A DNA stretch of 64,000 nucleotides from Acidimicrobiales bacterium (GCA_041394345.1 JAWKIN010000003.1:62737-126736); one strand, 5' to 3'. Counted from the stretch's first letter, positions 1 through 64,000 are shown. Made by a program: numbers and translations. The notes: a model not told the origin generated them from the sequence alone.

Positions 1-236
1 TCGGGTGAGTGCTTGTCGTAGCCGAGATGTTCTTCCATCTCGACCTCGAGGCCAGCTTCGAGGACCTGTTTGGTCAGTTTGCCGAGCAGGCCCCCAGGGC
101 CGACCAGATCGACCCCGTCGGCACGGGCTTGTTCGACGAGCTGCTCGGCGATCGATGGATCAACCTGCCTTGGCAGCTCCAGTTCGGTTTCATCATTCAT
201 CTTCGGTGCCATCACGGCACCATCATCATTCATCAT
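1..236 (-). CDS. IS256-family (Mutator-type) transposase, first 78 codons; gene runs off the left edge of the window
   Basis: My reverse translation from ATG at 236 gives MMNDDGAVMAPKMNDETELELPRQVDPSIAEQLVEQARADGVDLVGPGGLLGKLTKQVLEAGLEVEMEEHLGYDKHSP. The GPGGLL..LTK.VLE..LE.EM..HLGYDKH block is the conserved N-terminal region of IS256/Mutator transposases. It is absent from the ORF track because it is open at the edge. The plus-strand ORFs at 5..360 are antisense artefacts. Confidence 0.75.
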   Translation of the reverse strand, partial: MMNDDGAVMAPKMNDETELELPRQVDPSIAEQLVEQARADGVDLVGPGGLLGKLTKQVLEAGLEVEMEEHLGYDKHSP

Positions 237-263
237 CAGAAAGTCCTTCCGGCGAGCCTCAGC

Positions 264-1204
264 TCAACCAGTCAGACCAGACCAGATACACCGTTTTCCT
301 GACAGTCCCAGCCGCCGCGTCGTGATGAGTGGAAAGGTGGTTGATGAACCCGGTTGCTGACTGCAACGACGCCACATAGGTATCACGATCGGTCTCGGTT
401 TCGACGCATAGGCCGGGTTCGGTTGGTTCTGATGCCCACACCACGCAATGAGGGAAGGTCGGATCGATTGGTGTTGCCGGCCCTGCGGGGTTGTGCGCAA
501 CACGACGGGGATGTGAGCAACTTGGATTGGGACGCCCACACCGAATGGGTCCTGGGCGCATGGCCGGGTGACGGTGCCGTCGGCTGCTTCGAAACGGATG
601 TTCTCGAGTGTGACGCGGGCGCCTTCGTTTCCGCTGATACTGACTTGGGTGAGTTTCTCGAGCCTGATGAAGAAATCGGTGCCTGGTCCGTTGTTGGTGT
701 AGACGAGGGCGTCTGCTCGTCGTTGTTCGAGCACGGTGGGTCGGTATGGGGTTGACCAGCCGTGGGAATCGAGGCTGGCGCTGACGGTGCCGTCAGTGTT
801 CGCCCGGTAGAGATCAAAAAGAAGCAGCAAACCTTCATCCTTGGCTACCTCCATGTCGTTTGCCATGTCTTTGCCGAGCTGTTCGTAGTCGATGGATACA
901 TACGGGCTGAGCCAGCCCGGCACCAGGCCTTCAATCCTGACGCCCATATCGTCAAGTAAGTCCTCGGCGTAGGCAGCCAGGCTGTCCCATTGCCCCAGGT
1001 AGTGCTCATCGAAGTTGTCGAGTGCTTCTTCGTTTTCTGTGCCGACGATCTGAGCCCAGTGAGCGAACGCTGGGCCGTGCAGCGTGAGCCCGATAGCGAT
1101 GCGTGAGATCGTCCTGATGCTCTCATACTCATGCGGTTCGAAGGCTCCGAAGTGTTCATAGTCATGTATTGCCCATTCCTCTGCGTCTGGTTGTTTGGAT
1201 GCTC
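264..1204 (-). pseudogene. ardA: ArdA-family antirestriction protein homologue with its 5' end displaced by the IS3 element and an unassigned ~180-aa C-terminal extension
   Basis: This is ORF 264..1235 (-). Residues ~14-145 (KQPDAEEWAIHDYEHFGAF...FDEHYLGQWDSLAAYAEDLLDDMG...YVSIDYEQLGKDMANDMEVAKDEGLLLLFDLY) match the ArdA signature (EEWAIHDYE.F, YIDYE..G.D). The first ~10 codons of the called ORF (MRCHLHVQQT) are encoded by the IS3 left inverted repeat. The distal ~180 codons have no family I recognise and run toward the IS256 end. Confidence 0.55.
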
Positions 1205-1272
1205 GGGTCTGCTGCACGTGTAGGTGACATCTCACATGACTTGCCTGCGGGCTTGTCTGGAAGGATGTTCAC

Positions 1273-1566
1273 ATGCCCAAGCCCTATCCCCGCGAGTTCC
1301 GCGACGACGTGATCCGAGTCGCCCGCAACCGCGACGACGGTGTCACCCTCGAGCAGGTCGCCAAGGACTTCGGGATCCATCCGATGACCTTGTCGAATTG
1401 GATCAGCAAAGACTCGATCGATAACGGCACCAAGCCGGGTGTCACGTCGTCGGAGTCGGTGGAGAACCGTGAGCTTCGCCGGCGGGTGAAGCTCCTCGAA
1501 CAAGAGAACGAAGTGTTGCGCCGTGCCGCCGCTTATCTGTCCCAGGCGAACCTGCCGGGAAAATGA
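1273..1566 (+). CDS. IS3-family transposase OrfA (HTH plus leucine-zipper-like C-terminus)
   Basis: The 97-aa ORF reads MPKPYPREFRDDVIRVARNR...LEQVAKDFGIHPMTLSNWI...ENRELRRRVKLLEQENEVLRRAAAYL, which is the typical IS3 OrfA architecture. Confidence 0.9.
   Translation: MPKPYPREFRDDVIRVARNRDDGVTLEQVAKDFGIHPMTLSNWISKDSIDNGTKPGVTSSESVENRELRRRVKLLEQENEVLRRAAAYLSQANLPGK
1557..1563 (+). promoter_or_regulatory. Programmed -1 ribosomal frameshift heptamer G GGA AAA joining orfA to orfB
   Basis: In the orfA frame the sequence reads CCG GGA AAA TGA. The heptamer G_GGA_AAA fits X_XXY_YYZ. After a -1 slip the next codon is ATG at 1563, which is the orfB frame. Confidence 0.7.
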
Positions 1567-2438
1567 TGTTCCCGCTCGTCCGCGAGCTTGCCGCCGACGG
1601 GATCCCCGTCGCGGTGACGTGCCGGGTTCTCGATCTTTGCCGCCAGCAGTACTACCGGTGGCTGACCGCACCGGTCACCGACCAAGAACTCGACCACGCC
1701 CATCTCACCAACGCGCTCTTCGACGCCCATCGTGACGACCCCGAGTTCGGCTACCGGTTCCTCGCCGACGAGGCCCGCCAGGCCGGCCACGATGCGTGTG
1801 ACCGGACGGTGTGGCGGATCTGCGCGGACAACGGCTGGTGGTCGGTGTTCGGCAAGAAGAAGAACCGGAAGAAGTCAACGCCGGGAACACCGGCCCATGA
1901 CGATCTGGTGCGCCGCGTGTTCACCGCCGAACGGCCGAACGAACTGTGGCTCACCGATTTGACCGAGCATCGCACCGACGAAGGAAAGCTCTACCTGTGT
2001 GCGATCAAGGACGTGTTCTCGAACCGGATCGTCGGCTATTCGATCGACGATCGGATGAAGGCACGACTCGCTGTCACCGCGCTCGACAACGCCGTCGCCC
2101 GCCGCGGCGATGTCGCGGGTTGTGTCCTGCATTCGGATCGAGGGTCGCAATTTCGTGCACGGAAACTGCATCGTGCGCTCGCCCGTCATGAGATGGTCGG
2201 CTCGATGGGCCAGGTTGGTTCGGCCGGTGACAACGCAGCAATGGAATCGTTTTTCTCACTGCTGCAGAAGAACGTTCTCAACCGACGGCGCTGGGCCACA
2301 CGCGAGGAGCTGCGGATCGCGATCGTGACCTGGATCGAGCGGACCTACCACCGACGCCGCCGGCAAGCACGCCTCGGCCGATTGACCCCCATCGAATACG
2401 AAACCATCATGAACCCTCAGACAGCAATCGCTGCCTGA
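1563..2438 (+). CDS. IS3-family transposase OrfB (DDE/rve integrase core)
   Basis: The 291-aa ORF carries a DDE triad context: LWLTDLTEH, VLHSDRGSQF, NAAMESFFSLLQKN. It overlaps the orfA stop by 4 nt in the -1 frame. Confidence 0.9.
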   Translation: MMFPLVRELAADGIPVAVTCRVLDLCRQQYYRWLTAPVTDQELDHAHLTNALFDAHRDDPEFGYRFLADEARQAGHDACDRTVWRICADNGWWSVFGKKKNRKKSTPGTPAHDDLVRRVFTAERPNELWLTDLTEHRTDEGKLYLCAIKDVFSNRIVGYSIDDRMKARLAVTALDNAVARRGDVAGCVLHSDRGSQFRARKLHRALARHEMVGSMGQVGSAGDNAAMESFFSLLQKNVLNRRRWATREELRIAIVTWIERTYHRRRRQARLGRLTPIEYETIMNPQTAIAA

Positions 2439-2481
2439 TCAACCTGTCACCTGATCGTGCAGCAGACCCCAGCCCTATTCA

Positions 2482-3019: not shown

Positions 3020-3026
3020 TTGAATT

Positions 3027-3257: not shown

Positions 3258-3289
3258 CGCGGTCCCACGCCTTGGGTGGGCGGCACCCA

Positions 3290-3715: not shown

Positions 3716-6521
3716 CTAGCTACAGCCGCTGGTGTTGCCGCAGTCGGGGCACGCATGACAGGACCCAGCACGCTGCATCTTGATGCCGCACTGCATGCAG
3801 ATCGGTGCATGCGGGTCACTGACGGGCGCTGAGCTGTGCCCGGTTGCCGCTTCCTTGGCGACGAGGTCAATCATCGCCGCCGGCGACTCGATCGACGGCT
3901 TGTCGACCGGCAGCTCACTACCTTGCACCGTGGAGGCCTCTTCGACGCCCGGCAGGGTCTGCTGGGTGCGCTCGGAGGTGGTGAAAATACCAAGGTCGGC
4001 GCGCTCTTCGTAGGGGATGTAGAGCACGGCAAGCTTGCGGAACAGGTAGTCGATGATCGAGGTCGCGATACGAATATCAGGATCATCGGTCATGCCAGCT
4101 GGCTCGAACCGCATGCCAGTGAACGTCTCGACGAAGTTGCGCAAGGGCACGCCGTACTGAAGGCCATGGCTCAGAGAAATAGCAAGCGCATCCATGATGC
4201 CCGCCAACGTTGAACCCTGCTTGGAGACCCGAAGGAAGACCTCGCCGGGGCGCCCGTCCTCGTATTCGCCAACCGTGACGAACCCTTTGCAGTCGGCGAC
4301 GCGGAACTCGAAGGTTCGCGACGAACGGTTGCGAGGGAGGCGCTCACGAACGGGCTTGTAGACAACCTTCTCAAGTACCTCGGTGACCTTGATCGCCGCA
4401 TCGGCGACACCAGCGGCCGCCGCTGGCGTAGCGTCGTCCTTCTTGGCCGTCGAGAGAGGCTGGCCGACCTTGCAGTTGTCGCGATAGATGGCGACGGCCT
4501 TGACACCCATGCGCCACGCATCCATGTGGAGTTGCTCGACGTCTTCGACGGTTGCGTCCTCTGGCATGTTGACCGTCTTGGAGATGGCGCCCGAGATGAA
4601 CGGCTGCACGGCAGCCATCATCTTGACGTGGCCGAGGTAGTGGATCGTGTTGTCGCCCATTGAGCAGGCGAACACGTCAACGTGCTCAGGCTTGAGGTGT
4701 GGCGCACCCATGATCGACTTATTGAGGTCGAGGTAGGCCGCAATCTCAACGATCTGACTATCGCTGTAGCCCAAGCGTCGCAAGGCACGCGGCACCGACT
4801 GATTGACAATGGTCATCGTGCCGCCGCCGACCAACTTCTTCATCTTCATGAGGCCGAGGTCGGGCTCGATGCCCGTCGTGTCGCAGTCCATCAGCAGACC
4901 GATGGTGCCCGTTGGGGCCAGCACCGTCGCCTGGGCGTTGCGCACACCGACCTGGAGGCGCCAGCTCACAGGTTGCGTCCCATGCTTCTTGGGCCGCACC
5001 GAGGATGTCGACCGGGGCGAGCCTTTCGTCGATATCGGCGGTGGCCGAACGGTGCTGTTCGAGCACTCGCAACATCGGCTCACGGTTGACTCATAGGCCG
5101 GCATGGACCCATGCGAGCAGCCGTCTTGACGGAGGTGGGAGATAGGCGTGGCCCGTCAGCCGTGGAGCGTGGGCGGGCGTAGGCGCGGCCCGCTTCGGAG
5201 TCGTAGGCCAAATGAGGTTCATCAGCAAGGCGCCGATGTTGGCATATTGAGGCCGAGTTGACGGAATTGGCGAGAGGTCTCACCGTGATGCCTTCTGTCG
5301 GGTAGTCGGCTCGGCCAACGAGGATCTCCTGAGCAGAAGAAATGCTCGATCGCCACCTTGTAGCCCTCAACGTTGAACGTGTCGTCGTCGTTGGTGAAGC
5401 CCATGAGGTTGAGGCTGGCGAGATTGCACGCCGAGTTGTCGAGGTGCATGTATTCGCTGCACGGGTTGGAGCCGTTGATCTTGCCGGTCACCGCCGAGGT
5501 GTGCCAGCGGTTGATCGTCGAGTCGAACTGCATGCCCGGATCAGCACATTCCCAGCTGGCCTGGGAGATCTGGCGTGATCAGCTCACGGGCCTTGACGAC
5601 TCGGACAACGTCGCCCGTCGTACGGGCGATGAGTTTCCAGTCGCCATCGGCTTCGACGGCTTCCATGAATTCGTCGGTGACCCGGATGGAGTTGTTGGCG
5701 TTTTGATATTGGATCGAGTGGCTGTCGGCGCCATCATCCATGTCGAAACCGGCGTCGCCGAGGACGCGGGCCTTGCGTTCCTTCAATGGCCTTGCACCAG
5801 AGGAACTTTCGATTGGAAACGATCGACGTCGAGCATGACCATCTTGGCAGCCCGACGTGTCTTTCCGCCGTCTACGGTGCCGAGCCGACGAGTCGGCGCC
5901 ACGCATGAAGCTGACGGGCCCCGACGCAGTGCCACCACCCTTGAGCAGTTCGTAGCTCGAGCGGGATCTTCGAAAGGTTGACACCAGCACCGAGCCACCC
6001 TTAAAGATGGAAGCCTTCCTCGACGTACCAGTTGAGAATTGCGTCCATCTTGTCGTCGACGGCCAGATGAAACAGGCGGAGTGCTTGCTGGGGCACGCCC
6101 TCGACGCCGATGTTGAACCAGACGGGTGAGTTGAACGCACCCTTTGGTGGATGATGAGGTACTTCAACTCGTCGGAGCAGATCTGGGCCTCGTCCTCGCT
6201 CACTGTGAAGTAGCCGCCCTCACGGCCCCACGCAGTGATGGTGTCGACAACCCGGTCGGCCACGGTCTTGAGTGACGACTCGCGCTCTGGAGTTCCTGGA
6301 TTACCACGGAAGTACTTCTGGGCGAGGATGTTGGTGGCGTTTACCGACCAAGTTGACGGGACCTCGACGCCCAACTGTTCGAAGGCCACCTCGCCCGTCT
6401 TCCAATTGGAGATGCGAGCGTCACGCTTCTCCCAGATCACGGTGTCGTACGGATGGATGCCTTCGGTGGTGAAGTGGCGGCGGAGGACCAATACCGGTCT
6501 GCTTTCGGGGGCAAGTGTCAT
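3716..6521 (-). pseudogene. nrdJ: Class II (adenosylcobalamin-dependent) ribonucleotide reductase NrdJ, at least 4 frame changes as sequenced
   Basis: ORF 3716..5104 ends ...[30 protein letters not shown] 5222..5533 carries the active-site motif NPCSEYMHLDNSACNLASLNL. ORF 5783..5998 carries GGKTRRAAKMVMLDVD. ORF 5541..6908 carries the N-terminus from ATG 6521 (MTLAPESRPVLVLRRHFTTEGIHPYD..ILAQKYFRG..SACFI..IFKGGS..LKGGGTASGPVSFMRGAD..QYQNANNSIRVTDEFM). GGAAG lies 8 nt upstream of the ATG. Confidence 0.9.
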
Positions 6522-7594: not shown

Positions 7595-10435
7595 ATGAGC
7601 AGCGTTTGGCAGACGCTGCGACGATCACAAAGGCCCTTAATGCGACGGATATCCCAATTCTTTCTCTCACTCATGCTGCTCGCTGGCGTCGTCGTCGGCG
7701 TCGCAGCCTCAAGTCTCGCCGTGGTCAATGACTGGGAGATCTACGCACCGTGGGGCGTCACCGCTCGCCACCGATCGTCAGACACGAAACAACATCTACG
7801 TCTACGAGATCGAAAACATCAACGGCATCGTGTACGTCGGCGGAGCTCTTCAACAGGTCGTCCATCGCGACTCGCCTGACCAACCGATCGACCAACCCTT
7901 TATCGCGGCGTTCGACGCCGCCAGCGGTGACCCGGTCGCCACCTTCCGCCCTGTCCTCGACCATCCGGTGTATGCCATCACCGAACACCCAACGACCGGT
8001 GCCATCATCGTCGGCGGTGAATTCACCATGGTGAATGGTCAGCCCCAAACAGGACTCGTCGCCCTCGACCCTCTCACGGGAGCAACCGATACGTCCTATG
8101 ACGTCGACATCGTCCTTGGCGGCAGTTGGCGAGCAACCGTGTGGGCCCGACTCCGACGGCGCCTCGATCTACATCGGCGGCGGCTTCGACCGAGCAATCG
8201 GCACCAACGGCGGCTTCAATCGATCCAACCTCGTCAAGACCGACCTCCAGGGCGCCATCGACCCAACCTGGGATCCCGCCGTCAGCGGCGGTGGCGTGTG
8301 GACGATAGCTCTGACGACCGACCAACAACGCCTCGTCTTCGGCGGTCGTTTCAACCTGGTTGACGGGGCGTATCGACCCGGCATTGACAGATGGTCGAGA
8401 GCACGGGTAGCGGCACCCTGACCAATACGTTCACGCGGTGGGAGCAAGTCGCCCCCTACTGCTATGGCGGCTATCCCGGCTGCATCTTCGTGTACGACCT
8501 CGACGTCGCCGACGGCAAGATCCTGATCAGCGCAGCGGAACACTTCTCGGCACTCCACGACACAACAGCCCGCATCAAGCTCTGAGAGCGAGTCCAACGA
8601 CACCCAAGCCGGGCCTCTACAACGGGCTCGCTTGGACGACCCGGACACGGAGGCGACAACGGCATCGGCTTGTATTACGCCTACAACCTCCAGACCATGG
8701 CGCGAGAGGTCACGACCAGTGGACGACTCAGCACCGGGGCTGGCGGCTTCGCCTATGAAGCCGGACCGAACGGGTGCGTCTGGTTTGGTGGCGCCATCGG
8801 TGGCATGGATCTGGCCGACGTGCCAGGCAACAGCAAAGTAGCTGCGCAGTTCAATCTCGGCTTCATGTGCCCACCCGGCACGCCGGTCCCAGCGTCTTCA
8901 CTCGACATCACCAACTGGCAAACTCCATCGGGCTTGCTTGTCCGCGGGCTTCGCACCACCGACGTCGGCTACACCTATGCCGTCTTCGCCTACACCCCAG
9001 CAGCCGACGCAGTTCGCCACGACGTTCTGGTCGATGGTGTCATCGTCGGCAACGACAACGACGGCTCATTTGCGTTGAGCGACCTCCGACCGGGCCGTGA
9101 CGGCCGACGCCTTCGTCCGATCGGTGAACGCCGCTGGCGAGACGGGGACCGCGCTCATCCGGGTTACGGCCAACTCAGCCACCGGCGATCGCCCGACAAC
9201 AAGCCAGGCGTTAGCGTGCGGCAGATCACCGACTACTCGGCCTCGTACCCCGCCAGCAACGCAAACGACGACAACATCGCCAACACGTCAATCACGGGCT
9301 ACGGATTCCAGCGTTGGTGGGAGATCGACCTCGGCTCCTCCCAAGACCTCTCACAGCTGGAGATCTATGCCCGAGCTGGCGCACCCCAGCAGACATCGAA
9401 CTCACTTCCTTGTCTCGGCAACGCTCACCTCTGACTCACTTGCGGTCAACCAGGCGCTCGCCTCGACCGACGTCTACATCGCCGGCAACATGGGCTACCC
9501 GACGACGGTGGCCCCAAACGACACCGGCCGGTACATCCGCATCCAGACGGACAACAACAACTATCTCTCCATCGGCGAGGTCAACGTCACCGGAGTCGCC
9601 GACGTGGCCGGCGAGGTGGTCCTTGCCAATCCGTTCTCGATTGACCGAACGCCACCAGCGGGCAACCTGACCTGCAGCCTCGCCGTCAACGCCACCAACG
9701 TCACCATCACCTGGACCGGCGACAAGGCGGACGCAATCGGTCGTGTTCCGCACCCCAACCGGCGCCAACACCTCATATGCGTCGTTGACCTCCCCGGCAC
9801 CTCGTTCACCGACACTCAGCAACGGCGTCACCTACAACTACGAAATCCGTGAACGCACCGGCCGTCAACGGCGACCCAATCAACTGCGGCGACGTGTCGC
9901 CACCGGATCCGCCACCAGCGGGCAACCTGACCTGCAGCCTGCCGTCAACGCCACCAACGTCACCATCACCTGGACCGGCGACACCAACGCGGACGCAATC
10001 GTGTTCCGCACCCCAACCGGCGCCAACACCTCATGAAAGGCCGCGTTGACCTCCCCGGCACCTCGTTCACCGACACCCTCAGCAACGGCGTCACCTACAA
10101 CTACGAAATCCGTGAACGCACCGGCCAAGTCAACGGCGACCCAATCAACTGCGGCGACGCGGCCGCCACCGATCCGCCACCAGCGGGCAACCTGACCTGC
10201 AGCCTCGCCGTCAACGCCACCAACGTCACCATCACCTGGACCGGCGACACCAACGCGGACGCAATCATCGTGTTCCGCACCCCAACCGGCGCCAACACCT
10301 CATGGCGCGCACGTGCGACACCTCCCTGGCACCTCGTTCACCGACACCCTCAGCAACGGCGTCACCTACAACTACGAAATCCGTGAACGCACCGGCCAAG
10401 TCAACGGCGACCCAATCAACCGCGGCAACACCTAA
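7595..10435 (+). pseudogene. Large secreted multidomain protein (signal peptide, beta-propeller-like repeats, F5/8 type C discoidin-like domain, three tandem ~87-aa repeats); many frame changes and one in-frame TGA
   Basis: The signal/TM segment is RRISQFFLSLMLLAGVVVGVAASSLA (ORF 7586..). Repeated IVYVGG.L / IIVGGEFTMVNG / IYIGGGFD / LVFGGRFNLVDG blocks appear in ORFs 7728.., 8035.. and 8391... The discoidin-like part reads NANDDNIANTSITGYGFQRWWEIDLGSSQDLSQLEIY ... RYIRIQTDNNNYLSIGEVNV (ORFs 8670.., 9097..). The C-terminal repeats read PPAGNLTCSLAVNATNVTITWTGD..ADAI.VFRTPTGANTS...LPGTSFTDTLSNGVTYNYEIRERTGQVNGDPINCGD. The terminal TAA is at 10433-10435. Confidence 0.7.
9652..10435 (+). repeat. 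Three near-identical tandem coding repeats (~260-265 bp each)
   Basis: The unit start CCACCAGCGGGCAACCTGACCTGCAGCCT recurs at 9652, 9912 and 10177. The copies differ by a few substitutions and 1-3 nt indels. Confidence 0.85.
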
Positions 10436-10500
10436 GACACCATGGCCGCTTCATGGCGCCAACTCGAAATCCAGCGCGGTGCGGTGTAGCGTCGCCCGCA

Positions 10501-17008: not shown

Positions 17009-17030
17009 ACGGGCACACTTAGTGCCGACT

Positions 17031-22821: not shown

Positions 22822-22836
22822 GCGAGCGGGGTGGTG

Positions 22837-31859: not shown

Positions 31860-32215
31860 GGCGCACCGAACTCTCGGTGGAGGGTCGATCGAGCCTGCCC
31901 CTCGATTCTGCCGCCTGCGAGTGCAAGCAGGGGTCCAGCAAGGCCGAAGAAGCCCTTGCCGCGAAGGTCCAAGGTGATCACCAACGAAGACCCCGGTACC
32001 CGTCGCTGAAGCTCGACCGACCCTTTGGCCTTGAATGTGCCGCCCTCGACCTGGAGCAGCCAGAGATCGCCGCTCGGCGTCACGGTGGCCCGAACGTCGT
32101 CATCGGTTGTGAACCAGCCAACGACCTCCTCGGGCCGCTCTGCTGCTTCATTGAGCCGGCGCCGAACGAGGTGTTCCTCGGCCGCGACGTCGACCGTGAA
32201 ATGTTGATGGGACAC
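31856..32215 (-). CDS. Hypothetical 119-aa protein
   Basis: This is an intact ORF with a GTG start overlapping the miaB stop. I could assign no family with confidence. Confidence 0.4.
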   Translation of the reverse strand: MSHQHFTVDVAAEEHLVRRRLNEAAERPEEVVGWFTTDDDVRATVTPSGDLWLLQVEGGTFKAKGSVELQRRVPGSSLVITLDLRGKGFFGLAGPLLALAGGRIEGQARSTLHREFGAP

Positions 32216-41846: not shown

Positions 41847-41971
41847 AGCAACTCCTGGGTAAAACGCCGAAAGGCTCACCACGGCGCAGTCACGCTAGCG
41901 CCATAGTGAGTCCTTTCAGAATCCCGTGAGTCCTCTGGGGCGCCGCTGACCTGATTGGGCAGCGTGCCGGA

Positions 41972-55233: not shown

Positions 55234-55292
55234 GCCTTCGATATCCGGACGCCGAGTTCTTCGTCGTAGTCAGTGAGCGTCATCCCCAGTAT

Positions 55293-56201
55293 TTACGACG
55301 TCTTGCGGCTAACTAAAGTCCGCCTTGACGTTCCAGCGCAGGCGGCGAGACAAACTCGAAACGCCTGGCATAGGTAGGCCGAGTCGGGTGGCCCGGCGCT
55401 AAGCGCAGCCGGAGATCGAGTGGGACACCAGCTTGCTGGCCAGTGCACAGTGTGACTCTGGTCTCGATCTCGGGGTCGAGCCGGCCCCAGCTGAAGCATC
55501 ATCAGGGCGAAGTCGGCTCGAGACAGTGGGTCACGACCAGCGATGTTGAGCACGCCGTGCACGTCGGGCCGCTCGACAAGGCCGGCAAGCGCAGCGGCCA
55601 ACGCGGTAATCTCCATCGGTTGGCGAAGGACGTCCTGCCATAGCGTGATCAGTTCGCCAGCATCGAGGCGGTCCGCCAGTCCAGCCGTGCCCCGATCAAT
55701 TGACGCCAGGCCATAGATCAGCGACGTGCGAACGATGACGGCGGCTGGGTTCGAGGCCAGGATCTGCTGCTCACCCTGAGCTTTCGATTGACCGTAGGGC
55801 GTCATCGGCGTAGGCGAAGCGTCGTCGGCGTAGGGACCGGAACGGCCGTCGTGCACCATGTCGCTCGACAGGGCCACCAAGCGAGCGCCATTTTCTGCAC
55901 ACCAGCTCGCCAACGTCCCGGCCGCCTCGGCATTTACTCGACGCAAGTCGTCATCTGAGAGCACCTGCTTGCGCGGCCGCACAATGCACGATGCCCTCGG
56001 CGCCAGGTCGTCGAGCAGGCGCCTGGTCTGCGCCGAATCCCGAAGATCGAGCTCGGCCCGCGCCCGCCCACACGCCCGCACCCGCACCCGCACCCGACGG
56101 ACGAGGCACGACACACCCACCGTGCCGCCGTTCCACGCCTGGCAGAGATGCGACCCCAGGTAGCCCGAGGCACCGGTGACAAGCAACGGCCCCTGCCGCA
56201 T
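55293..56201 (-). pseudogene. NAD(P)-dependent sugar-nucleotide reductase/epimerase (RmlD-like), 3' end probably frameshifted
   Basis: From ATG 56201: MRQGPLLVTGASGYLGSHL...ELDLRDS...LVALSSDMVHDG....PYGQSKAQGEQ. It contains a low-complexity RVRVRVR insert encoded by a (CGCACC)n repeat. Confidence 0.65.
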
Positions 56202-56269
56202 TGCGTTGTTGGTGTCGCTCTCGTGGGCACCGAGCGACGGGCACGATGATCGGGCGGAGCCGGGTGCGG

Positions 56270-57888
56270 TTACTGACAAACGCCCAAGCGTGCGACGAGT
56301 GATCTTCTCGAGCTGGCCCGCGAACGGACCCCGTCAGCGATGGCCTTTTCCACTGCGTCACGCACCGATTGAGAAGCTGCGTCCTTACGGAGTTGGTCGC
56401 CTTCAGGGCCATCGACCCATCCGCGGCTAACGATCTGGGGCAAGCCGACGAGTTCGGCGTTGGCCCCCTTGATGACGAGCGCAACGACGGCCGACACAAA
56501 CCCATCGGTGCCAAGGGTTCGCCGCTCGACCACGACACTGTGGTCGAGGTCGCCGACGGAGCCATCGACGTAGATGTATTCGGCCGGGAAGCTTTCGCCT
56601 CTGGTGATGCCGTCGTCACCGAGCACGATGCTCTCACCCGTCTTGGCAGATGAGGATCTTGTCGGCCTTGGTGCCCATGCGAGTTGCCAGACGGGCGTGC
56701 TCAACGAGGTGGCGATATTCACCATGGACAGGAACGAACCACTCGGGCTGCACGATCGAGTGCATCACTCGGAGTTCTTCGGCCTTGGCGTGACCAGTGG
56801 CGTGCACCCGAGCCGTTCCCGAGTGGACGACTTCGACGCCACGGCGGATGAGCCCATCGATAACGCAGGACACGCTCGACTCGTTTCCGGGGATAGGGTG
56901 AGACGACAAGATGACACAGTCGCCATCTTTCATCGAAAGGAACCGGTTGTCGCCGGTTGCCATGCGACCAGTGCCGACATCGGTTCGCCTGTGAGCCGGT
57001 GCAGATGACGCACAGCTTCTCGTCGGGAATGTCGCCGACGTCAGCGATATCGCGCAGGTGCGTGTCAGGGATTCGCAGCAGCCCCATCTGGCGGGCCAAG
57101 GCGACGTTGTTGTTCATCGAACGGCCAAGCGTGGCCACGATGCGACCATTCGCGATGGCCGCGTCGGCGACCTGCTGGACGCGGTGGATATGTGACGCAA
57201 AACAGGCCACGACGATGCGTCGCCCTTCGCGCTGCATGAAGAGGTCGCTGATCGATTGTCCGATTGAGGTTTCTGAGTCGGAGAAGCCGGGTGATTCGAC
57301 GTTGGTCGAATCACACAAGAACAAGCGGATGCCGTCGTCCTTGGCCAGGTGGCCGATGCCAGCGAGGTCGGTCAGGCGGCCGTCGACCGGTGTCATGTCG
57401 AGCTTGAAGTCGCCACTGTGGAGAATCACACCCTGCGGTGTGTGGAACGCGGTGGCAAACCCATGCGGGACCGAGTGGGTTACCGGAAAGAACTCCAGAT
57501 CGAACGGGCCGACCTTGATGCGATCGTTGTCACTGACCTCGATGAACTCGGCCTGCTTGAGCAGACCCTTCTCGCCGATGCGGTTCTTGGCCAGTCCGAT
57601 AGTGAGGGGCGAGCCGATGATCTTGAGCGGCATCTCTTCGAGCAGGAACGACAGCGCGCCAATGTGGTCTTCGTGACCATGCGTGGCCACGACGCCTTCC
57701 ACCCGGTGCTTGTTTTCCTTCAACCAGGTGAAGTCAGGCAGGACGAGGTCGATGCCGGCCATGTCGTCATCGGGAAACATAAGGCCACAGTCGATGAGCA
57801 TGATGCGCCCGTCGACTTCGACTGCCGCACAGTTACGACCGATTTCGCCGAGGCCACCAAGGAAGGAGACGCGAACTTGGGAGGGCAT
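56270..57888 (-). pseudogene. rnj: Ribonuclease J (2 frame changes)
   Basis: ORF 56719..57888 carries VSFLGGLGEIGRNCAAV...VVATHGHEDHIGAL...HSGDFKLD. ORF 56634..56963 carries ...VHATGHAKAEEL...PVHGEYRHL. ORF 56270..56725 is the C-terminal domain. Confidence 0.95.
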
Positions 57889-58779
57889 CAGAGTGACCGC
57901 CCGAGTCCGGTGAGCACCGACGTGGCCCGCTCATTGAGCGAGTCTGGTGCGGGACCCATGGGCGATCGGCAAGTGCCAACGTCGAGACCGAGCAAGTTCA
58001 TAAGTACCTTTGATGGAACGGGATTTGGTGCGTCGTCTGATGTCTCGAATTGGTAACTCGGGATCATCAAGGCGTTGAGGCGACGAGCCTCAGCAACATC
58101 GCCGCGTGCGAATGCGTCAAACATGGCCGACATCTCACGGCCGGCCCAGTGGGTGGCAACGCCGATGACGCCGATGGCGCCCACCGCGAGCAGAGGCAGC
58201 GTCAGCTTGTCTTCGCCGGAATAGACCATGCCTGATCCATCGAGCTTGGCGATGAGTTGGGCCGTTTCAGCGACATCGCCCGCCGCATCAGCAGCCCCGA
58301 CGATGATGTTGTCGACTTCGAAGAGCGACAGCAGAGTATCGAGGCTGATCTTGCGTCCCGAGCGGACGGGAATGTCGTAGAGGACGACCGGCTTTTCGGT
58401 CGCCGCGGCGACGGCGGTGAAATGGGCGTGCAGGCCACTTGTGATGGGCGGTTGTAATAGGGCGTAGCGCCAGAATGGCGTCGGCACCAGCGGCGTCGGC
58501 CATTTCGGTGAGTTCGACCGCCGCTTTGGTGTCGTTGCTCCCGGCGCCTGCGATGACGACGTGATCGGGAATGGCCCCCGCGGACTGCCGTGATGAGGTC
58601 GACCTGCTCGCGGTGGGTCAGCGTGGCCGATTCACCGGTCGTACCAGCGACGACAACACCATCATTGCCGTGCTCAACGAGATAGCGGGCGAGCTGTTGG
58701 GCCCCGTCGAGGGTTGAGGGACCCGTCGGCCCCAAACGGGAGTCACCATGGCGGTGAGAACCGTGCCGAATTGTGGCAT
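57888..58779 (-). pseudogene. dapA: 4-Hydroxy-tetrahydrodipicolinate synthase (at least 2 frame changes)
   Basis: From ATG 58779, [15 protein letters not shown] is my own translation. ORF 58202..58948 carries [39 protein letters not shown] 57888..58487 carries [13 protein letters not shown].... Confidence 0.9.
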
Positions 58780-59321
58780 TAGTGCGCTTTCTCTGAGGCC
58801 CGGTCGATGCCGAGAGATGCCAACAAATCTTCATGCATCTCGAACCAGACCGTGTGGTACGACTCCATGATCCCGGCTTGGTGAACCATTCGGTCTCGCC
58901 CGCTCGGACCTTTTCGAGCGCCGAGGTGGCTTGAAACGTGGATCGCAAATCGGCTGAGCTGCTCGCCGGGTGGCACAGATCGGCTGGACTTTGGCGTCAA
59001 TGGCAGCAAGCTCGGCGACAACGCGGCGTCGTAGTCGGCGTCGGCGTGGTCGTTGAGTTCGTTTTCGCCCTTCACCTGCCAGTCGGTGCAGACCTGGAGC
59101 ATTGCTCCATTGAGCGGAAGGAAGTCGTCAGTAACACTGCTGCACGACAGCTCAGGCCTGGCGTCGAGTTCTTCTCGCAACAGGCGCTCGTTTTCGGCAC
59201 GCCCCTCAGCGGTCATCGTCCAGCCCGTTGCGGCGTCCGTCGCGATGGGGTGGAATACGCTTCGGCCGCTTTGACGAGCGCAGCGTCGGTCGTCGACACT
59301 CCAGGCCTTGAAGTTCGGCAA
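58779..59321 (-). pseudogene. Hypothetical protein, possibly winged-helix N-terminus; frameshifted; not ThyX
   Basis: ORF 58779..59321, with pieces in other frames, carries ...TAEGRAENERLLREELDA...NGAMLQVCTDWQVKGENELNDHADADYDAA...[17 protein letters not shown]...[21 protein letters not shown]. Its TAA overlaps the dapA ATG (TAATG). It lacks the ThyX RHR..S motif. Confidence 0.3.
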
Positions 59322-59416
59322 TAGTGTCAGCGCCGGTGAAGCCCTTGAGGCGAAGATAACAGGTGCCAGCAGTTCGATCGAGGAGTCGTTAGCCGCAAGC
59401 GCCCACCCTACCAGTG

Positions 59417-60180
59417 TCAGTCGGTGGAGTCCGAGGCGATCTCAGACGATCGCTGCCGGACAAGCTTGCGAAGGAGGTGAAGGTAGGCGCCAGCTCCAAG
59501 AATGGTGAAGGTGAGTCGTGCGCGGCGTACGAGAAGTAGGTGCCATTCGTCAAGGGGGGTAGCTCAAGCGCCTCAGGCACCACGTCGGCCGCGCCCACCT
59601 CAGGGAGCGGCACCTCGGTCGGCTCAAACTGGACCCACGCCGAAACGGCATTGATGCCAAATCGGTCGGCGAGCAGTGCCACGTCCGGGCGAGGAACCCG
59701 CTCACCGGTTCCCGTATCGGTCGCACCAGGCGCCATCCTTCACGCCTCGATATCCGCCACGGAACCAGCCGTCGAGATGTGTGGGATCAAGTGGCGGGCA
59801 GTCACCTCGTCGCGCAGGATGAAGCCACGGTTGACGAGAACATCCTCGCCATCGTCGGTCACGAAATGCGCCCACGACCAGTCGCCAGCGACGCCGTCGA
59901 GCGAACGGTTGGCCACTCGGGTCAGCTCGTCCTCGACATAGTGACCAGTGTCGGACACCGGCTGGAAGGCGATCTCGTCTGGCGCCAGGTCATGAATCTC
60001 ACTGATCGGCACCGGCGCCAGCTGTGCTCGGGCCTCAACGAGCGCATTCGGCGTCTTTTTCTCGTCGAGCCGGCGGAGCTGCCAAACGGCCCAAACGAAC
60101 GCAATAGCGCCAACAAACAAATGAGACAACAACCATTTCGGCCGGAGGAGGAAACGCCAGTCGCCAATCACAACGGCCAA
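59417..60180 (-). pseudogene. SURF1-family cytochrome oxidase assembly protein (in-frame TGA at 59740 plus a 3' frame change)
   Basis: ORF 59740..60180 carries RPKWLLSHLFVGAIAFVWAVWQLRRLDEKK...DVLVNRGFI. ORF 59389..59736 continues in the same frame (...VALLADRFGINAVSAWVQFEP...LPPL). The tail ...LSYA-like/TM segment and the stop at 59417 are in another frame. Confidence 0.7.
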
Positions 60181-60294: not shown

Positions 60295-60897
60295 ATGAAA
60301 CTCGAGTATCAGGTCGACCCGCCATCCTGGCTCGGGCGTCTCGTCGTCGGTCTCATCGCGGTGTCATTCGTGGCCGCGTGGGCCAGCAGTCTGCTACTCG
60401 CCAACTTCATCGACCAGCACCCGCTCGCCCTGATTGGTCTGGGACCAAGCGATCGCAACCTTGCGCTGACCGTCAACGAGGTCGACCGGGTCTGGTACTA
60501 CGTGGTTGGGCTCACCCGCCACCTGTCGACCGACCCGTTATTTTATCTCGTTGGCTATTGGTACGGCGACAATGCGGTGGCGTGGGTGGCCAAGCGAAGC
60601 AAGTCGTTTGGTGAGTCCGCCGACGAGATCATCCCCCAGTTTCGGAGGTGGTCCTGGGCAGCCGTCTTCCTCATGCCGTTCAACATTGTTTGCCTGCTGG
60701 CCGGGGCCGCTGGCTTGCGCTTCCGCACGTTCCTCGCCGTCAACATCACTTGACGCCTGACCCGCTTGTTTGTGATCTCGCAGTTTGCGTCGTTTTTCGA
60801 CGGCCAGATCTCGGGCGTCGGTGAGTTCATCATCGAAACCGTGTGCCCGTGTTCGTGGTCAGTCTTGTGCTTGTCGGCTGGACCATCTATGGGGTAG
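60295..60897 (+). pseudogene. VTT/DedA-like (SNARE-associated) membrane protein (in-frame TGA at 60751; 3' end uncertain)
   Basis: ORF 60295..60753 carries ...LIGLGPSDRNLALTV...DPLFYLVGYWYGDNAVAWV...VFLMPFNIVCLLAGAAGLRFRTFLAVNIT. Reading through the TGA gives RLTRLFVISQFASFFDGQI.... Confidence 0.5.
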
Positions 60898-60964
60898 CAC
60901 CGATAGATCCCAGCTCAAGAGCTCGGCGACCTGTCAAACGAGGACGGCACCCACAACCGCCGCT

Positions 60965-61012
60965 CGGGGTCAGACCCCGCGCTGCGATATGCGCGTACGG
61001 GGTCTGACCCCG
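60965..61012. terminator. 15-bp perfect inverted repeat CGGGGTCAGACCCCG-N18-CGGGGTCTGACCCCG (bidirectional terminator candidate)
   Basis: The arms are at 60965-60979 and 60998-61012. Each arm is itself a near-palindrome. It lies between convergent genes. Confidence 0.5.
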
Positions 61013-61021
61013 AAGCGCGGT

Positions 61022-62174
61022 TTAGGACAGGGCTTGGGCGAAATCGGCGATGATGTCGGCGGTCTCTTCGAGCCCGCACGACACGCGGATCGTGCCGGGC
61101 CCGATAAGCGCTTCGGCCTGCTCGTCAGGGTCGAGCGCCGCGTGGTGGTGGACGCCGGGTGTGTAACCAGCGTCTCCGGACCGCCAAGCGAGGTGGCATG
61201 GCGCGCCAGCGCGAGGCCTTCGACAAGCGTTCGCCAGCGGCGGCTTCGCCGCCGGCAAGATCGAAGGTAACAAGCCCGCCAAACGACGTTAGCTGACGCT
61301 TGGCCAACTCGTGCTGAGGATGGCTTGGCAGGCCGGGATAGCACGTCGCCGACACCTCGGGTCGGGCCGACAAGAACTCGGCCAGCGCGGCTGCGGTGGC
61401 CGATTGCTGTAGCCGAACCGGCAGGGTCCGCAATCCACGGAGGCCGCTGGTGGCATCGTGCCACCGGCGATGCGGTTGCCCAGCGCAGCACCGTCCCGAT
61501 ATCAATCGATGGTCGCGCGCTCACCCGTCACCACGCCGAGCTTCGCCGTCATTGTGCCCCGCTATCGCCTTCGTGGCCGCACGTCGGATGACGAGATCAA
61601 TGCCCGTGCCGGTGTGGCTGCTGGCCGAGCGGTGTCGCCAACGTCCCGAGTCGAGCACCTTGAACGGCCTTACGATTGAGCCGAGTTCGTCGAGGTCGAC
61701 CAGATCGAGACGGGGTTTGCTGGGCTCTCGGCCAGAATGACGTTGGTCCGGCCCGGTATCACCGCCCGAGCGTCGCACCTGGTTCGGTGCCGTCGACCCA
61801 CGTCACGTCGATACCAAATCGGGCACACGGCCCCTGCAACAGCTGCCGTGTACCGCCGAGATCTGTCGTGTGGCGACCACATGGCCGCCCGTTGAGCACA
61901 GCGCCAGCACCACGGCAGAAATGGCTCCCATCCAGGAACCAAAACGCCCGGGCAGACTCAGCGCCTTCGAGTTCGGCCATCGCGTCTTCAGATGCCGCCA
62001 CGCTGGGACTGCCGTATCGACTATAGAAGCGTTCCGACCGGGGCGAGAGCGCCATCTTGCGGGCGCTTGCGATTGACGGCTGCTCGTAGGTTGTCGAGTT
62101 CAGGATAGCGCCAGCTGGTCATCCGCTCAGCTGCGCCAACTCGTGATGGCAACGGTTGCCTGGCTCAGCGCCAT
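61022..62174 (-). pseudogene. Cys/Met-metabolism PLP-dependent enzyme (cystathionine gamma-synthase / O-acylhomoserine sulfhydrylase family; at least 4 frame changes)
   Basis: From ATG 62174: MALSQATVAI..., then ILNSTTYEQPS...FYSRYGSPSVAASEDAMAELEGAESA (ORF 61759..). YPGLPSHPQHELAKRQLTSFGGLVTFDLAGG is in ORF 61125... The C-terminus GTIRVSCGLEETADIIADFAQALS is in ORF 61022... Confidence 0.75.
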
Positions 62175-62289
62175 AGTGCCAGCGGCGGCCGCTTCAGGTG
62201 TTGACCTTTGGTCTGATTGCTGGGAATCCTCGATTACTGGACACCCAGAACGAACCTTGTTTGCTGATAAGCCAGCCGCATCGCTCAGC

Positions 62290-62365
62290 AAGTCCGAGCC
62301 TGGCACCTTGGGTGTCCGTCCTAGGTTGCCGGACCTCAGGAGAGAGTCACTCTGAATGCTTGCAC
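62290..62365 (-). ncRNA. Candidate SAM-I-clan (SAM-I / SAM-IV-like) riboswitch core in the leader of the Cys/Met PLP enzyme gene
   Basis: The minus strand reads ...CAUUCAGAGUG-ACUCUCUCCUGAGGU-CCGGCAACC-UAGGACGGACACCC-AAGGUGCCAGG-CUCGGACUUGCUGAGCG-AUGC.... It has the GAGUG / CCGGCAACC / AAGGUGCC elements in the order seen in SAM-I and SAM-IV aptamers. It lies 120-190 nt upstream of the ATG. I could not build a convincing P1. Confidence 0.4.
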
Positions 62366-62805
62366 GGCATCGTAGCGCCCAGGCGGACGGACGCAACCCA
62401 AACCTCGCGCGTGGTTTAGCAGCACCCGAATCGCTGACCGCCCTGCCGGCGGTTGGGGTGGCGATGGCGGCAATGGTGGCGGCGCGCCGCCACGGTCGGA
62501 TCGGGGCGTGGTTCGAGGATCGCGGCCACGACCGCGGCCAAGCTGACGCAGTAGTCACGGCCTACCGCGTCGAACCGACGGCGGACGTTGACCTGCCGCA
62601 ATGCCGTCGAGGTTTGATCGAGTGTCTTCTCGACCGATGCCACCGACGAGTGGTAGACGCCACGACTCGTGAGCAGGCCCGCTCAAGCACAACGGGAAGA
62701 CCGATTAGCACGAGTGGACTGACGTGCGGCCACCGCCGACACGGCTATCGCCCCACCGGCACCAACTGCTCCTCCGCCAAGCCAGGGCGTTCCGGCGTCG
62801 GTCGC

Positions 62806-63293
62806 TTACGTCAACGACCAGACAGATCGCGCCATCGCCGACATCGACCACGGCGCCGCGGACCGCCTTCGCCTTGCCCAGTCCACCCAGCCCTTGGACC
62901 GAGCGCAGCCCTCGACCAAGCTTGCCGACAACGTCGGTTCGGCGATCGGCGACATAGAGACCGTCGCCCGCTCGTCGAGCACGAAGGCCATTGGCCCGAC
63001 TCCAGCCAGTCCGAGGAGCTGTGCTTCAAGCTCGACCTCATCCTCGTGCCACTCGATTGCCAACAAGCTCCGATGGCCCGATAAGTCGATCGAGGATGTT
63101 TCGATCCTGATCGACTCGTGCCGTCTTTCGGCCAGCGCCAGCGCCAATGCGTCAAGCGGTAGACCGACCTCGTTCGCTATCTCGGCGAGTTCGGTGTCCG
63201 GAAGCCGGTGCTCATAGGCCAATGGGGTGCCGCGGCCGCCAGCTCGAACGCGCGCCGAAGCACCTGTTCGTTGGCCGAGGCACCGTCAGCCAT
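62806..63293 (-). pseudogene. Hypothetical protein (frame change near 63225; 3' part unclear)
   Basis: ATG 63293 opens MADGASANEQVLRRAFELA... and joins ORF 62806..63222 (YEHRLPDTELAEIANEVGLPLDALALALAERRHESIRIETSSIDLSGHRSLLAIEWHEDEVELEAQLLG...). I recognise no family. Confidence 0.3.
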
Positions 63294-63329
63294 TAGATAC
63301 CCATGACCTGATCGAGTCCGACCGGTAAG

Positions 63330-64000
63330 CTACGGCGTATCACCAATGCGCTTCGCCGCCAGCAGGACACCCGGCATGAACGAGTCACGGTCGATCGAGT
63401 CGTGCTTGATCGTGAGCGTCTGTCCCGCCGTGCCGAGGACCACGACCTGATGCGCTACTGCGCCCCGCATGCGCACCGAATGAATCGGAATACCAGCTGG
63501 CCCGTCCGCTCCCCTGGCTCCGTCAATCGTAAAGGACTCGGTCGGATCGGCGGCCCAATCGCTTGAGGCCAACGCCATCCGTTCGGCGGTGGCCACAGCC
63601 GTTCCAGACGGGGCGTCTACTTTCGCGTCGTGATGGGTCTCGATGATTTCTGCCGTATCGAAGAACGGCGCAGCGAGCTCGACGAAACGCATCATGAGCA
63701 CGGCACCGATCGCGAAGTTTGGCTTGTGATCAGGCAGTTGGAGCCAGTGAACTGCTTGGCGATCGCCGCGTGATCGGACTCGACGAAGCCCGAGGTACCG
63801 ACGACGAGGTGAATGTTGTTGGCTGCGCAGAACTCGATGTTTTCGCGCGTGGCCGCAATATGGGTGAAGTCGATAACGACGTCGACCTCGGCCCCGCCCT
63901 AAACGCGTCCTTCAGACGCTGGACACCCGCAAAGCTGCAGTCGACCACCCCGGTACCTCGCAGATATCGATGCCATCAAACGTTGGGTCGACGGCGGCGA
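63330..64000 (-). pseudogene. dapB: 4-Hydroxy-tetrahydrodipicolinate reductase DapB (partial at window edge; frame changes)
   Basis: ORF 63330..63701 carries ...EIIETHHDAKVDAPSGTAVATAERMA...IHSVRMRGAVAHQVVVLGTAGQTLTIKHDSIDRDSFMPGVLLA. Upstream frames give VVIDFTHIAATRENIEFCAANNIHLVVGTSGF and AAVDP.... Confidence 0.9.

Follow-up and report, generated by a model that had tools for sequence, protein, structure and literature searches.

Patchy frame disruption in an Acidimicrobiales metagenome contig and its probable origin in uncorrected sequencing or assembly error

We studied a 64,000-nucleotide stretch of DNA from an Acidimicrobiales bacterium, hereafter the window, in which conserved proteins can often be recovered only by changing reading frame. 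A first-pass annotation, made from the sequence alone, had reported that more than half of all recognisable genes were disrupted in this way, essential ones included. This raised the question of whether these genes are broken in the organism or only in its deposited sequence.

Extent of frame disruption

Frame changes were called with a dynamic programme that tolerates frame shifts, by aligning proteins from Acidimicrobiales contigs with the window DNA, and a call was counted as supported when at least two references agreed. The aligned coding sequence came to 37,847 nt and held 123 supported frame changes, that is, 3.25 per kb. About 27 of the 37 aligned genes were frame-changed, and once Pfam checks and the reading of frame translations were added, disruption reached ~31 of ~41 recognisable genes, which bears out the initial estimate. 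With the identical pipeline, three control contigs (L003, L002, and L082) gave 0–1 supported calls per 11–16 kb each, single-reference alignments of <40% identity being left out, and the surviving calls sat where adjacent genes meet. On a further control, L001, 8.7 kb yielded two calls, of which one is a genuine single frameshift in its nrdJ gene. Since the controls were near zero, the signal in the window far exceeds the noise of the method. Incidentally, the split nrdJ of L001 was considered as a sign of a natural split or of a shared error site, and this was rejected, its single frameshift lying ~20 codons from the nearest event in the window.

Plain tblastn chaining was replaced by this procedure, as high-scoring pairs span short compensated frame excursions and so mask most lesions; recA, for instance, appeared as one in-frame match. 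A GC3 frame plot was dropped, third-position GC being only ~75%, too weak for calling frames without references. Four regions with low-identity or antisense reference matches only, at 14014-14859, 24999-25717, 33337-34707, and 46735-47916 (+ strand), were left out of the counts. No same-species sequence was found in the collections searched, and because the closest relatives are just 70–79% identical at the protein level, lesions were placed with a precision of a few codons, the tandem repeat excepted. The top protein identity in a scan of GTDB representatives was 70%. In a metagenome scan, the best segment of L082 was listed at 96% identity, yet identity at the DNA level came to only 68–80%. 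RNA genes were also considered as an error probe; the window contained no tRNAs and one riboswitch just above threshold.

The disrupted genes and the main clean stretches are listed in Table 1. Most of the genes named by the first-pass annotation were indeed frameshifted, namely nrdJ, recA, ftsK, rnj, dapA, dapB, zwf, gnd, ino1, cinA, hrpB, engB, soxR, and the PLP enzyme. The exceptions were pgsA, which was not located in the window, and dapF, whose only sign of a frameshift was a tblastn match divided between two frames near 25150; the frameshift-aware alignments there were of low identity and were excluded from the count. The PLP enzyme had 12 frame changes, dapA itself 6–7, dapB 3, pgl 2, and ino1 and miaA 1 each. 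Pfam searches of frame translations revealed a frameshift in an EEP (endonuclease/exonuclease/phosphatase) family gene, and reading of the frame translations revealed others in a methyltransferase, engB, soxR, and a glyoxalase_3 protein. In the acyl-CoA dehydrogenase, the N-terminal MDMNLPPEADVF and the Pfam domains were found in different frames, in agreement with a frameshift previously placed near 10535. The conserved motifs quoted earlier were likewise in place in recA (42638-42685, minus strand), nrdJ (5405-5467, minus strand), and ftsK (52503-52526, minus strand). Among the genes said to be intact, miaB, rimO, dapE, lexA, nrdR, and the IS3 element were confirmed as such, and a further intact gene at 36352-37218 is probably the ROK kinase of the same list. 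The two frames of the IS3 element reflect programmed -1 frameshifting, which is normal for such an element, and do not enter the lesion count.

Table 1. Coordinates of disrupted and clean features in the window
Feature	Position	Strand	Observation
IS3-family element	1273..2438	+	orfA and orfB intact, in the usual two frames (frame translations read)
nrdJ, lesion-free C-terminal part	3719..4963	-	1,245 nt
nrdJ, error-dense patch, N-terminal and central	4964..6141	-	15–17 frame changes, ~84 nt apart
Tandem repeat in large repeat protein	9650..10426	+	271 nt unit, 2.9 copies
Acyl-CoA dehydrogenase	10490..11746	+	Three Pfam domains share one frame from ~10526
lexA	15340-16089		Clean
DUF455	16124-16933		Clean
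hrpB helicase	16710..19432	+	Spread over frames 3 (DEAD domain), 1 (helicase-C motif), and 2 (connector, HrpB_C)
dapE	19495-20571		Clean
dapC-like class I/II aminotransferase	21023..21184	-	3 frame changes in 162 nt; remainder clean
miaB	32215..33660	-	Fully intact, 0 events with 4–6 references
zwf, neighbour of gnd-like gene	38149		Single frame change
6-Phosphogluconate dehydrogenase-like gene (gnd-like)	38659..39383	-	6 frame changes
GMP-reductase/IMPDH-family gene	40779-41852	-	14 events
Largest dense patch	41134..42808	-	24 frame changes, ~73 nt apart
recA	41993-43012	-	At least 10 frame changes and an in-frame TAG
cinA	45763..46382	-	7 frame changes
rimO	47607-48875		Clean
Na/Ca exchanger	50127-51107		Clean
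ftsK	51135-53968	-	3 frame changes within 128 nt (52887..53014); other 2.7 kb clean, motor domain included
GGDEF-domain gene and start of NAD-epimerase-like gene	54630..55491	-	9 frame changes
rnj (RNase J), C-terminal half	56235..56991	-	6 frame changes
dapA and two genes after it	58438..59797	-	12 frame changes
DedA-like gene, PLP-dependent Met-pathway enzyme (61025-62362), hypothetical gene, and dapB (63296-63898)	60838..63920	-	~25 frame changes
nrdR			Clean

Distribution and type of the lesions

Lesions were concentrated in dense patches, with one lesion per 65–150 nt, which alternated with clean stretches of 1–4.6 kb, the longest being 4.6 kb. The median spacing was 83 nt, and the variance-to-mean ratio in 500-nt bins was 3.2, a value reached by none of 5000 permutations (p<2e-4). 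Density averaged ~3 per kb and rose to ~12 per kb within patches, so that the first-pass figure of about one lesion per kb was too low, and its view that intact genes had escaped by chance does not hold for lesions clustered to this degree. Two possible causes of the patches were also considered: GC content was rejected (63.3% in dense and 62.9% in clean stretches), and sequence conservation, acting through cross-mapping reads, is unlikely since highly conserved segments were free of lesions.

Four genes (nrdJ, ftsK, rnj, and the GMP-reductase-like gene) were cut by patch edges, and one patch extended over two genes. In nrdJ, 15 events lay within 1,178 nt and none in the remaining 1,245 nt (p=0.004 versus uniform placement), and this confinement to one part shows that a patch border lies within the gene. 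The largest patch started 355 nt inside the GMP-reductase/IMPDH-family gene, crossed the intergenic gap, and covered recA. The N-terminal 900 nt of RNase J (57000-57915) were lesion-free. Essential and accessory genes were struck alike, as expected of a long-read error, which is blind to function and to gene borders. Catalytic motifs were not spared either. The Walker A motif (P-loop) of recA was destroyed, GPESSGKT reading GPESSD/RST with loss of the P-loop Lys, and a TAG stood in frame at 42505 where relatives have Gln. The nrdJ patch also held compensated micro-excursions, for example, ALRLFH in place of SACFIL, a Cys-containing segment conserved in both aligned references.

Deletions (D1, 56; D2, 17) and insertions (I1, 42; I2, 15) were nearly equal in number, 73 versus 57. 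Hence, the earlier description of localisable lesions as losses of 1–2 nt does not apply as a general rule. At most 4 in-frame stops were supported against the 123 frameshifts, a ratio of at least 30 frameshifts to one stop. With a substitution:indel ratio of 10, 35 stops would be expected (P=3e-11), and with one of 3, 10.7 (P=0.02), which indicated that the ratio here is ~1–2 or less. Small indels thus predominate and substitutions are similar or rarer, as in long-read-type error; nanopore reads have been reported to carry 1.6% substitutions versus 4% indels (proovframe preprint, 10.1101/2021.08.23.457338). The tandem repeat provided a view within the window itself: its copies differed by ~8 small indels (1–4 nt) versus ~6 substitutions if one variable stretch is set aside, with breaks in the reading frame from copy to copy. 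The examples given earlier for this repeat were exact: copy 2 reads cctgcc against cctcgcc in copies 1 and 3, and copy 1 reads gacactc against gacaccctc in the others.

Mismatches at invariant residues amounted to 5–8.5% within 90 nt of events versus 1–1.9% farther away, and leave-one-out references showed 1–3%, comparable to the window away from events. The claim that frame disruption came without missense decay is therefore not sustained, given this local missense noise in patches and the in-frame TAG of recA. Taken alone, the 5–8.5% would also be expected from decay, and to that extent it speaks against an artefact.

We also asked whether events were linked to homopolymers, a check that the first-pass annotation had proposed. 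With positions known to a few codons, a run of at least 3 lay within 4 nt of 46% of events versus 34% of nearby random sites, and a run of at least 5 at 4% versus 1%. The outcome was weakly positive, with no strong enrichment, and the longest homopolymer in the window was 6 nt. The classic nanopore mark, deletions in long homopolymers, is weak here, which is a point against an artefact.

Origin of the lesions

We consider, with a probability of roughly 93%, that the lesions are uncorrected sequencing or assembly error in the deposited metagenome-assembled genome (MAG), the consensus having been built from error-prone long reads and corrected only locally. The first-pass annotation had preferred assembly indel error, and it is favoured here by the destroyed motifs, the few stops, the patch borders within genes, and the weak homopolymer link. 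In particular, essential chemistry is lost (the recA P-loop Lys and the nrdJ Cys segment) and residues between lesions are conserved as in functional orthologues, a combination that supports an artefact. Most likely, the genes are intact in the living organism.

The window lies on a 170-kb MAG contig deposited for an uncultured member of the Acidimicrobiales, and its long-read consensus would have been corrected only in part. Correction would be effective only with enough read depth, with short-read polishing, or with an accurate short-read contig as source in a hybrid assembly. Stretches corrected in this way would be essentially perfect, and the uncorrected ones would still carry frameshifting indels in both directions at ~1.2%, substitutions at a comparable level, and short scrambled spots, after which gene callers would cut the genes into fragments. 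The lesions themselves are observed, as are their spectrum, their patchiness, their disregard of gene borders and function, and their occurrence in the public record; the type of sequencing used and what exactly made the errors patchy are inferred. The pattern agrees with a long-read or hybrid assembly of low coverage, rather than with natural mutation, and points to stretches with little or no consensus correction rather than to classic homopolymer-deletion error. That the contig runs through the IS3 element and the 271-nt tandem repeat suggests long reads, and so, indirectly, does its length of 170 kb, given that the organism's proteins looked up, five in all, were singletons. The IS3 element is multi-copy and error-free, as expected from the extra read depth on such an element.

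Genes fragmented by frameshifts are well documented in low-coverage long-read MAGs (Sereika et al. 2022, PMC9262707; proovframe preprint, 10.1101/2021.08.23.457338), bins below 40x require polishing (PMC9262707), and low-abundance MAGs are the typical victims. Like the window, long-read MAGs (Nanopore or PacBio CLR) short of depth or polishing show small-indel lesions blind to function and fragmented gene calls on a contiguous contig. Their errors are usually homopolymer-linked, whereas those of the window take the form of sharp patches with ~1.2% indels beside error-free stretches. Such sharpness suggests that short-read polishing was patchy, that long reads filled gaps between short-read contigs, or that only one or two reads covered some stretches.

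A different artefact would arise if reads of co-occurring related strains or species had been mis-mapped to conserved segments during polishing or assembly, or if strains had been collapsed into one sequence. Samples of this kind commonly contain related Acidimicrobiales, conserved genes (recA, the nrdJ core, rnj, and dapA) hold several of the dense patches, and local scrambles occur instead of clean single-base indels. Yet, segments that are equally or more conserved were clean (the ftsK motor domain, miaB, rimO, the nrdJ C-terminal domain, and the rnj N-terminus), and poorly conserved genes were struck as well (the GGDEF protein, the hypothetical gene at 62.5–63.5 kb, and the repeat protein). 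Moreover, a collapse should yield mainly substitution mosaics, not ~1.2% indels. We regard strain mixing as improbable, though it fares slightly better than any reading in which the lesions are real.

Reductive genomes, such as that of Mycobacterium leprae and those of recently host-restricted pathogens or symbionts, have many disrupted genes with several lesions each beside intact neighbours. The window shares these three features, and a recent mass pseudogenisation of this type, leaving densely hit genes dead and clean ones functional, would account for lesions concentrated in certain genes with none in others, for the raised mismatches near lesions, for the one clear nonsense codon, in recA, and for mobile elements at the left end of the window. 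Unlike in such genomes, however, clusters ignore gene borders, beginning and ending within genes (nrdJ, p=0.004; ftsK, 3 events in 128 nt), and the broken genes showed neither large deletions nor IS insertions. Decay should also strike genes along their whole length and spare the indispensable ones, whereas the recA P-loop, ftsK, engB, dapA, and dapB were all hit, and no free-living cell could survive the joint loss of ftsK, engB, the dap pathway, and the one RNR that was seen in the window. Nonsense counts comparable to frameshifts and a gene-wide rise in non-synonymous change would be expected too; nonsense was nearly absent, with ≤4 stops for 123 frameshifts, and beyond 90 nt from events invariant residues were kept as in functional orthologues (1–1.9% mismatch). 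Finally, the spectrum differs from that of natural mutation. In mutation accumulation lines of the actinobacterium Mycobacterium smegmatis, small indels made up 15% of mutations and 79% of these lay in simple repeats (PMC4938668); the substitution:indel ratio is ~5.5–10 for natural mutation versus ~1–2 or less here, and only 46% of events in the window were near even a 3-nt run. We therefore give this explanation very little credence.

Were the indels nonetheless real, they would describe an Acidimicrobiales population with tracts of ~0.1–1.7 kb bearing small indels of both signs at ~1% per base, essential genes included. They could stem from a local error-prone process of repair or recombination in a lineage whose recA is broken; alternatively, the contig could derive from a genome copy that is redundant, decaying, or non-viable, as might occur in a polyploid cell. 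We hold this to be just as doubtful as mass pseudogenisation.

Slippage rescue in endosymbionts needs runs of ~9 or more. That the frameshifts are real and tolerated through programmed ribosomal frameshifting, transcriptional slippage, or RNA editing is extremely improbable, and nothing specific speaks for it. The IS3 transposase does have a normal programmed -1 frameshift, but this is a single conserved, site-specific event in the true two-frame gene of a mobile element and has no connection with the 123 scattered lesions. The latter have both signs and four size classes, are ~80 nt apart, share no slippery motif and have a weak link to runs, the longest of which (6 nt) is below the need of slippage rescue, and they replace catalytic residues rather than just shift them.

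The deposited record

As an uncorrected error, the pattern holds no biologically new content and is a data-quality warning. The deposited MAG contig carries ~3 frameshifts per kb of coding sequence, and gene fragments from it are now listed as proteins in public databases, so that analyses of gene content, completeness, or pseudogenes using this genome would go astray. With patchy errors, averaged quality scores and counts of intact genes can both mislead. The nrdJ fragment of the window was 100% identical to NCBI MEZ5340534, a 417-aa fragment annotated as "hypothetical protein" on a MAG contig of 169,971 bp, and the RNase J fragment matched MEZ5340602, a "ribonuclease J" of 389 aa that ends in ~90 out-of-frame residues. 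These matches show that the lesions exist in the GenBank record. Five proteins looked up in a collection of 15 billion proteins were singleton clusters at 90% identity.

Density and distribution of frame changes

In an ORF listing around recA and nrdJ (B12-dependent ribonucleotide reductase, RNR), conserved segments switched back and forth between frames. Plain tblastn chaining found too few lesions, its matches spanning short compensated excursions. Because of this underestimate, we wrote our own frameshift-aware aligner, a local protein-to-DNA alignment permitting gain or loss of 1 or 2 nt. Query proteins were translated from related Acidimicrobiales contigs, namely L001 around nrdJ, L002-L037 around miaB, and L082-L126 around rnj (RNase J). 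Events were kept with at least two supporting references, or one where the region had only one reference, and regions below 45% identity were discarded whole. Over the 37,847 nt of coding sequence that could be aligned, 123 frame changes remained, a mean of 3.25 per kb. With low-identity single-reference alignments set aside, controls L003, L002, and L082 yielded 0-1 supported calls per 11-16 kb in the same pipeline, and those remaining sat at junctions of adjacent genes. Control L001 yielded two calls in 8.7 kb, one being a true single frameshift in its nrdJ. The frame disruptions in the window are far above method noise.

The first-pass annotation had reported disrupted frames in more than half of the recognizable genes. 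The disruptions are indeed present, and more numerous than it stated. About 27 of the 37 aligned genes carry frame changes. A Pfam scan of frame translations added hrpB, an endonuclease/exonuclease/phosphatase (EEP) family gene, and acyl-CoA dehydrogenase (ACAD), whose N-terminus near 10535 lies in another frame, as had been claimed. Reading the translations by eye added a methyltransferase, engB, soxR, and a glyoxalase_3 protein, and the repeat alignment added a repeat protein, bringing the tally to roughly 31 broken genes versus about 10 intact. A split tblastn match suggests that dapF is disrupted, and pgsA, also listed earlier, was not located in the window. Pfam on intact relatives put names to the remaining genes of the census: zwf, a gnd-like gene, pgl, cinA, a GMP-reductase/IMPDH-family protein, and a class I/II aminotransferase. 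The motifs quoted for recA, nrdJ, and ftsK were all three found in place.

The earlier estimate of roughly one lesion per kb was too low, all the more so inside patches (dense runs of events), where spacing is 65-150 nt (84 nt in nrdJ, 73 nt across the GMP-reductase-like gene and recA). Counts in 500-nt bins were far from Poisson, with a variance/mean of 3.2, reached in 0 of 5000 permutations, and 38 empty bins against 15 expected; event-free stretches extended up to 4.6 kb of aligned sequence. Thus, intact miaB, rimO, dapE, and others are not the chance escapes they had been taken for. Nor are lesions confined to 1-2 nt losses: one nucleotide was missing in 56 events and two in 17, while one was extra in 42 and two in 15. 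Further short excursions that regain frame went uncalled (recA 42850-42874; nrdJ 'ALRLFH' for 'SACFIL').

Sequencing error against gene decay

Judged from sequence comparison, the most probable source of the disruptions is sequencing or assembly error that was left uncorrected in patches of a public MAG. This is the reading the first-pass annotation preferred, and five lines of evidence point to it: patch borders, lost motifs, mutational spectrum, conservation, and repeat copies. Near-perfect sequence alternates abruptly with stretches of about 1.2% frameshifting indels, in which we infer substitutions at a similar level. This alternation suggests partial correction of the consensus. Dense stretches might be backed by one or few long reads from a low-abundance population; short-read polishing might have covered parts of the contig only; or, in a hybrid assembly, accurate short-read contigs might have been bridged by filling the gaps with long reads. 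A depth effect would fit the multi-copy IS3, which is error-free. A consensus corrupted by mixed strains or species, itself a variant of artefact, appears improbable. Neither biased base composition nor cross-mapped reads from relatives explain the patches well, since G+C is equal in dense and clean parts and very conserved segments are frequently clean.

True mass pseudogenisation is slightly less probable still, failing on lesion distribution within genes, mutational spectrum, and conservation. Patch borders ignore gene borders. In nrdJ, a clean stretch of 1,245 nt gives way to 1,178 nt that hold 15 events (p=0.004, uniform placement); the only three events of the 2.8-kb ftsK fall within 128 nt; RNase J has 900 clean nt, then six events; and the largest patch, which opens 355 nt into one gene, continues across an intergenic gap into recA. 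Lesions remove the recA P-loop lysine and the conserved Cys-containing nrdJ segment, chemistry indispensable to any functional protein. They also strike RNR, ftsK, engB, and the dap pathway, a set whose simultaneous loss is not expected in a cell abundant enough to yield a 170-kb contig.

The mutational spectrum is also wrong for natural decay. As a random substitution has a 2.9% chance of creating a stop in the window's codon usage, 123 indels predict 35 in-frame stops at a substitution:indel ratio of 10 and 10.7 at a ratio of 3. At most four were supported (P=3e-11 and 0.02, respectively), and some of these may be where genes naturally end. In mutation-accumulation lines of M. smegmatis, an actinobacterium, small indels are 15% of mutations (~5.5 substitutions per indel), with 79% of these indels falling in homopolymer runs or other simple repeats (PMC4938668). 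In the window, whose longest homopolymer is 6 nt, the homopolymer enrichment raised earlier was weak, with 46% of events within 4 nt of a run of at least 3 nt versus 34% of nearby random positions. The lesion mixture matches that reported for nanopore reads (1.6% substitutions, 1.5% insertions, 2.5% deletions; proovframe preprint).

Away from events, mismatches at invariant residues were 1-1.9%, versus 1-3% in leave-one-out controls on functional relatives, and lesion-rich rnj (0.4%) and ftsK (0.6%) showed no general decay of such residues. The earlier claim of no missense decay stands there; it fails within 90 nt of events, where mismatches reach 5-8.5%. In recA, an in-frame TAG at 42505 replaces a Gln present in all four references. 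At base-level resolution, tandem-repeat copies differ mainly by 1-4-nt indels, and the examples cited earlier in the 271-nt unit are exactly as described. The shifts go in mixed directions, are densely spaced, and lack slippery sites, which in practice rules out recoding; IS3 orfA/orfB is the sole genuine two-frame arrangement in the window.

The deposited record and its relatives

The lesions belong to the GenBank record, since a window ORF matches a deposited protein at 100% identity and other window proteins come from the same contig. MEZ5340534, a 417-aa nrdJ fragment, is labelled 'MAG: hypothetical protein R2706_03540 [Acidimicrobiales bacterium]' on a contig of 169,971 bp, which also carries miaB (MEZ5340570), rimO (MEZ5340591), dapE (MEZ5340552), and the truncated RNase J. 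Frameshift fragments are now in public databases as ordinary proteins.

All five window proteins looked up were singleton clusters at 90% identity (~15 billion proteins), the best relatives showing 70-79% protein identity. The species was not among 185,579 GTDB species representatives scanned, and neither that scan nor the protein clusters provided a same-species sequence as a base-level reference. The lineage is known from one error-laden assembly alone, and its nearest relatives are mostly marine or coastal metagenome records. L082, syntenic with window 47.6-64 kb, shares just 68-80% DNA identity. In L001 (ENA ERZ25039499 contig_30066), the closest long contig (NrdJ identity 76%), one extra base at 9932 splits nrdJ into 518-aa and 421-aa ORFs. 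Many of the nrdJ homologues found on long public contigs measure just 380-650 aa. Splitting of genes by frameshifts thus seems common in long-read MAG collections.

Such fragmentation is already well documented in low-depth long-read MAGs. The depth needed for consensus polishing is out of reach for rare community members (proovframe preprint), and Nanopore bins below about 40x require short-read polishing against fragmented gene calls (PMC9262707). Biological interest is low, and the use of our observation is as a quality flag on a public MAG.

Other features of the window

Features located in the window
Feature	Position	Strand	Remark
IS256-like transposase N-terminus, at window edge	about 1-230	-	frame translations read
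ArdA-like antirestriction ORF	264-1235	-	frame translations read
Intact IS3-family element, orfA + orfB	about 1273-2438	+	frame translations read
nrdJ C-terminal part, 462-aa ORF	3716-5104	-	100% identical to NCBI MEZ5340534
Large Thr/Pro-rich secreted-type protein	7728-10430	+	repeat at 9650-10426
Inverted repeats, 61 nt, 79% complementary	21713-21773 and 22770-22830		flank frameshifted soxR-like gene
MEZ5340602 'ribonuclease J', 389 aa	56719-57888	-	final ~90 residues out-of-frame
SAM-I/IV riboswitch (predicted)	62247-62364	-	45.7 bits vs gathering score 41.1

Overall G+C is 63%. Positions 1-3700 resemble a mobile-element region, and G+C over 1-8000 (59.7%) is below the rest; the IS256-like, ArdA-like, and IS3 identities come from reading frame translations, not from a family search. 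The Thr/Pro-rich protein closes with a tandem repeat, 2.9 copies of the 271-nt (about 90-aa) unit 'PPAGNLTCSLAVNATNVTITWTGD...', and matched no Pfam family in any frame at E<1e-4. Between 21.65 and 23.0 kb there are 3-4 occurrences of short palindromic units related to the inverted repeats (translation '...EVATSTPISGR...'), suggestive of a family of REP- or MITE-like elements. The riboswitch, with two non-standard pairs, lies within an error-dense patch directly upstream of a PLP-dependent enzyme gene (61025-62240), which, given this position, probably acts in methionine or cysteine metabolism.
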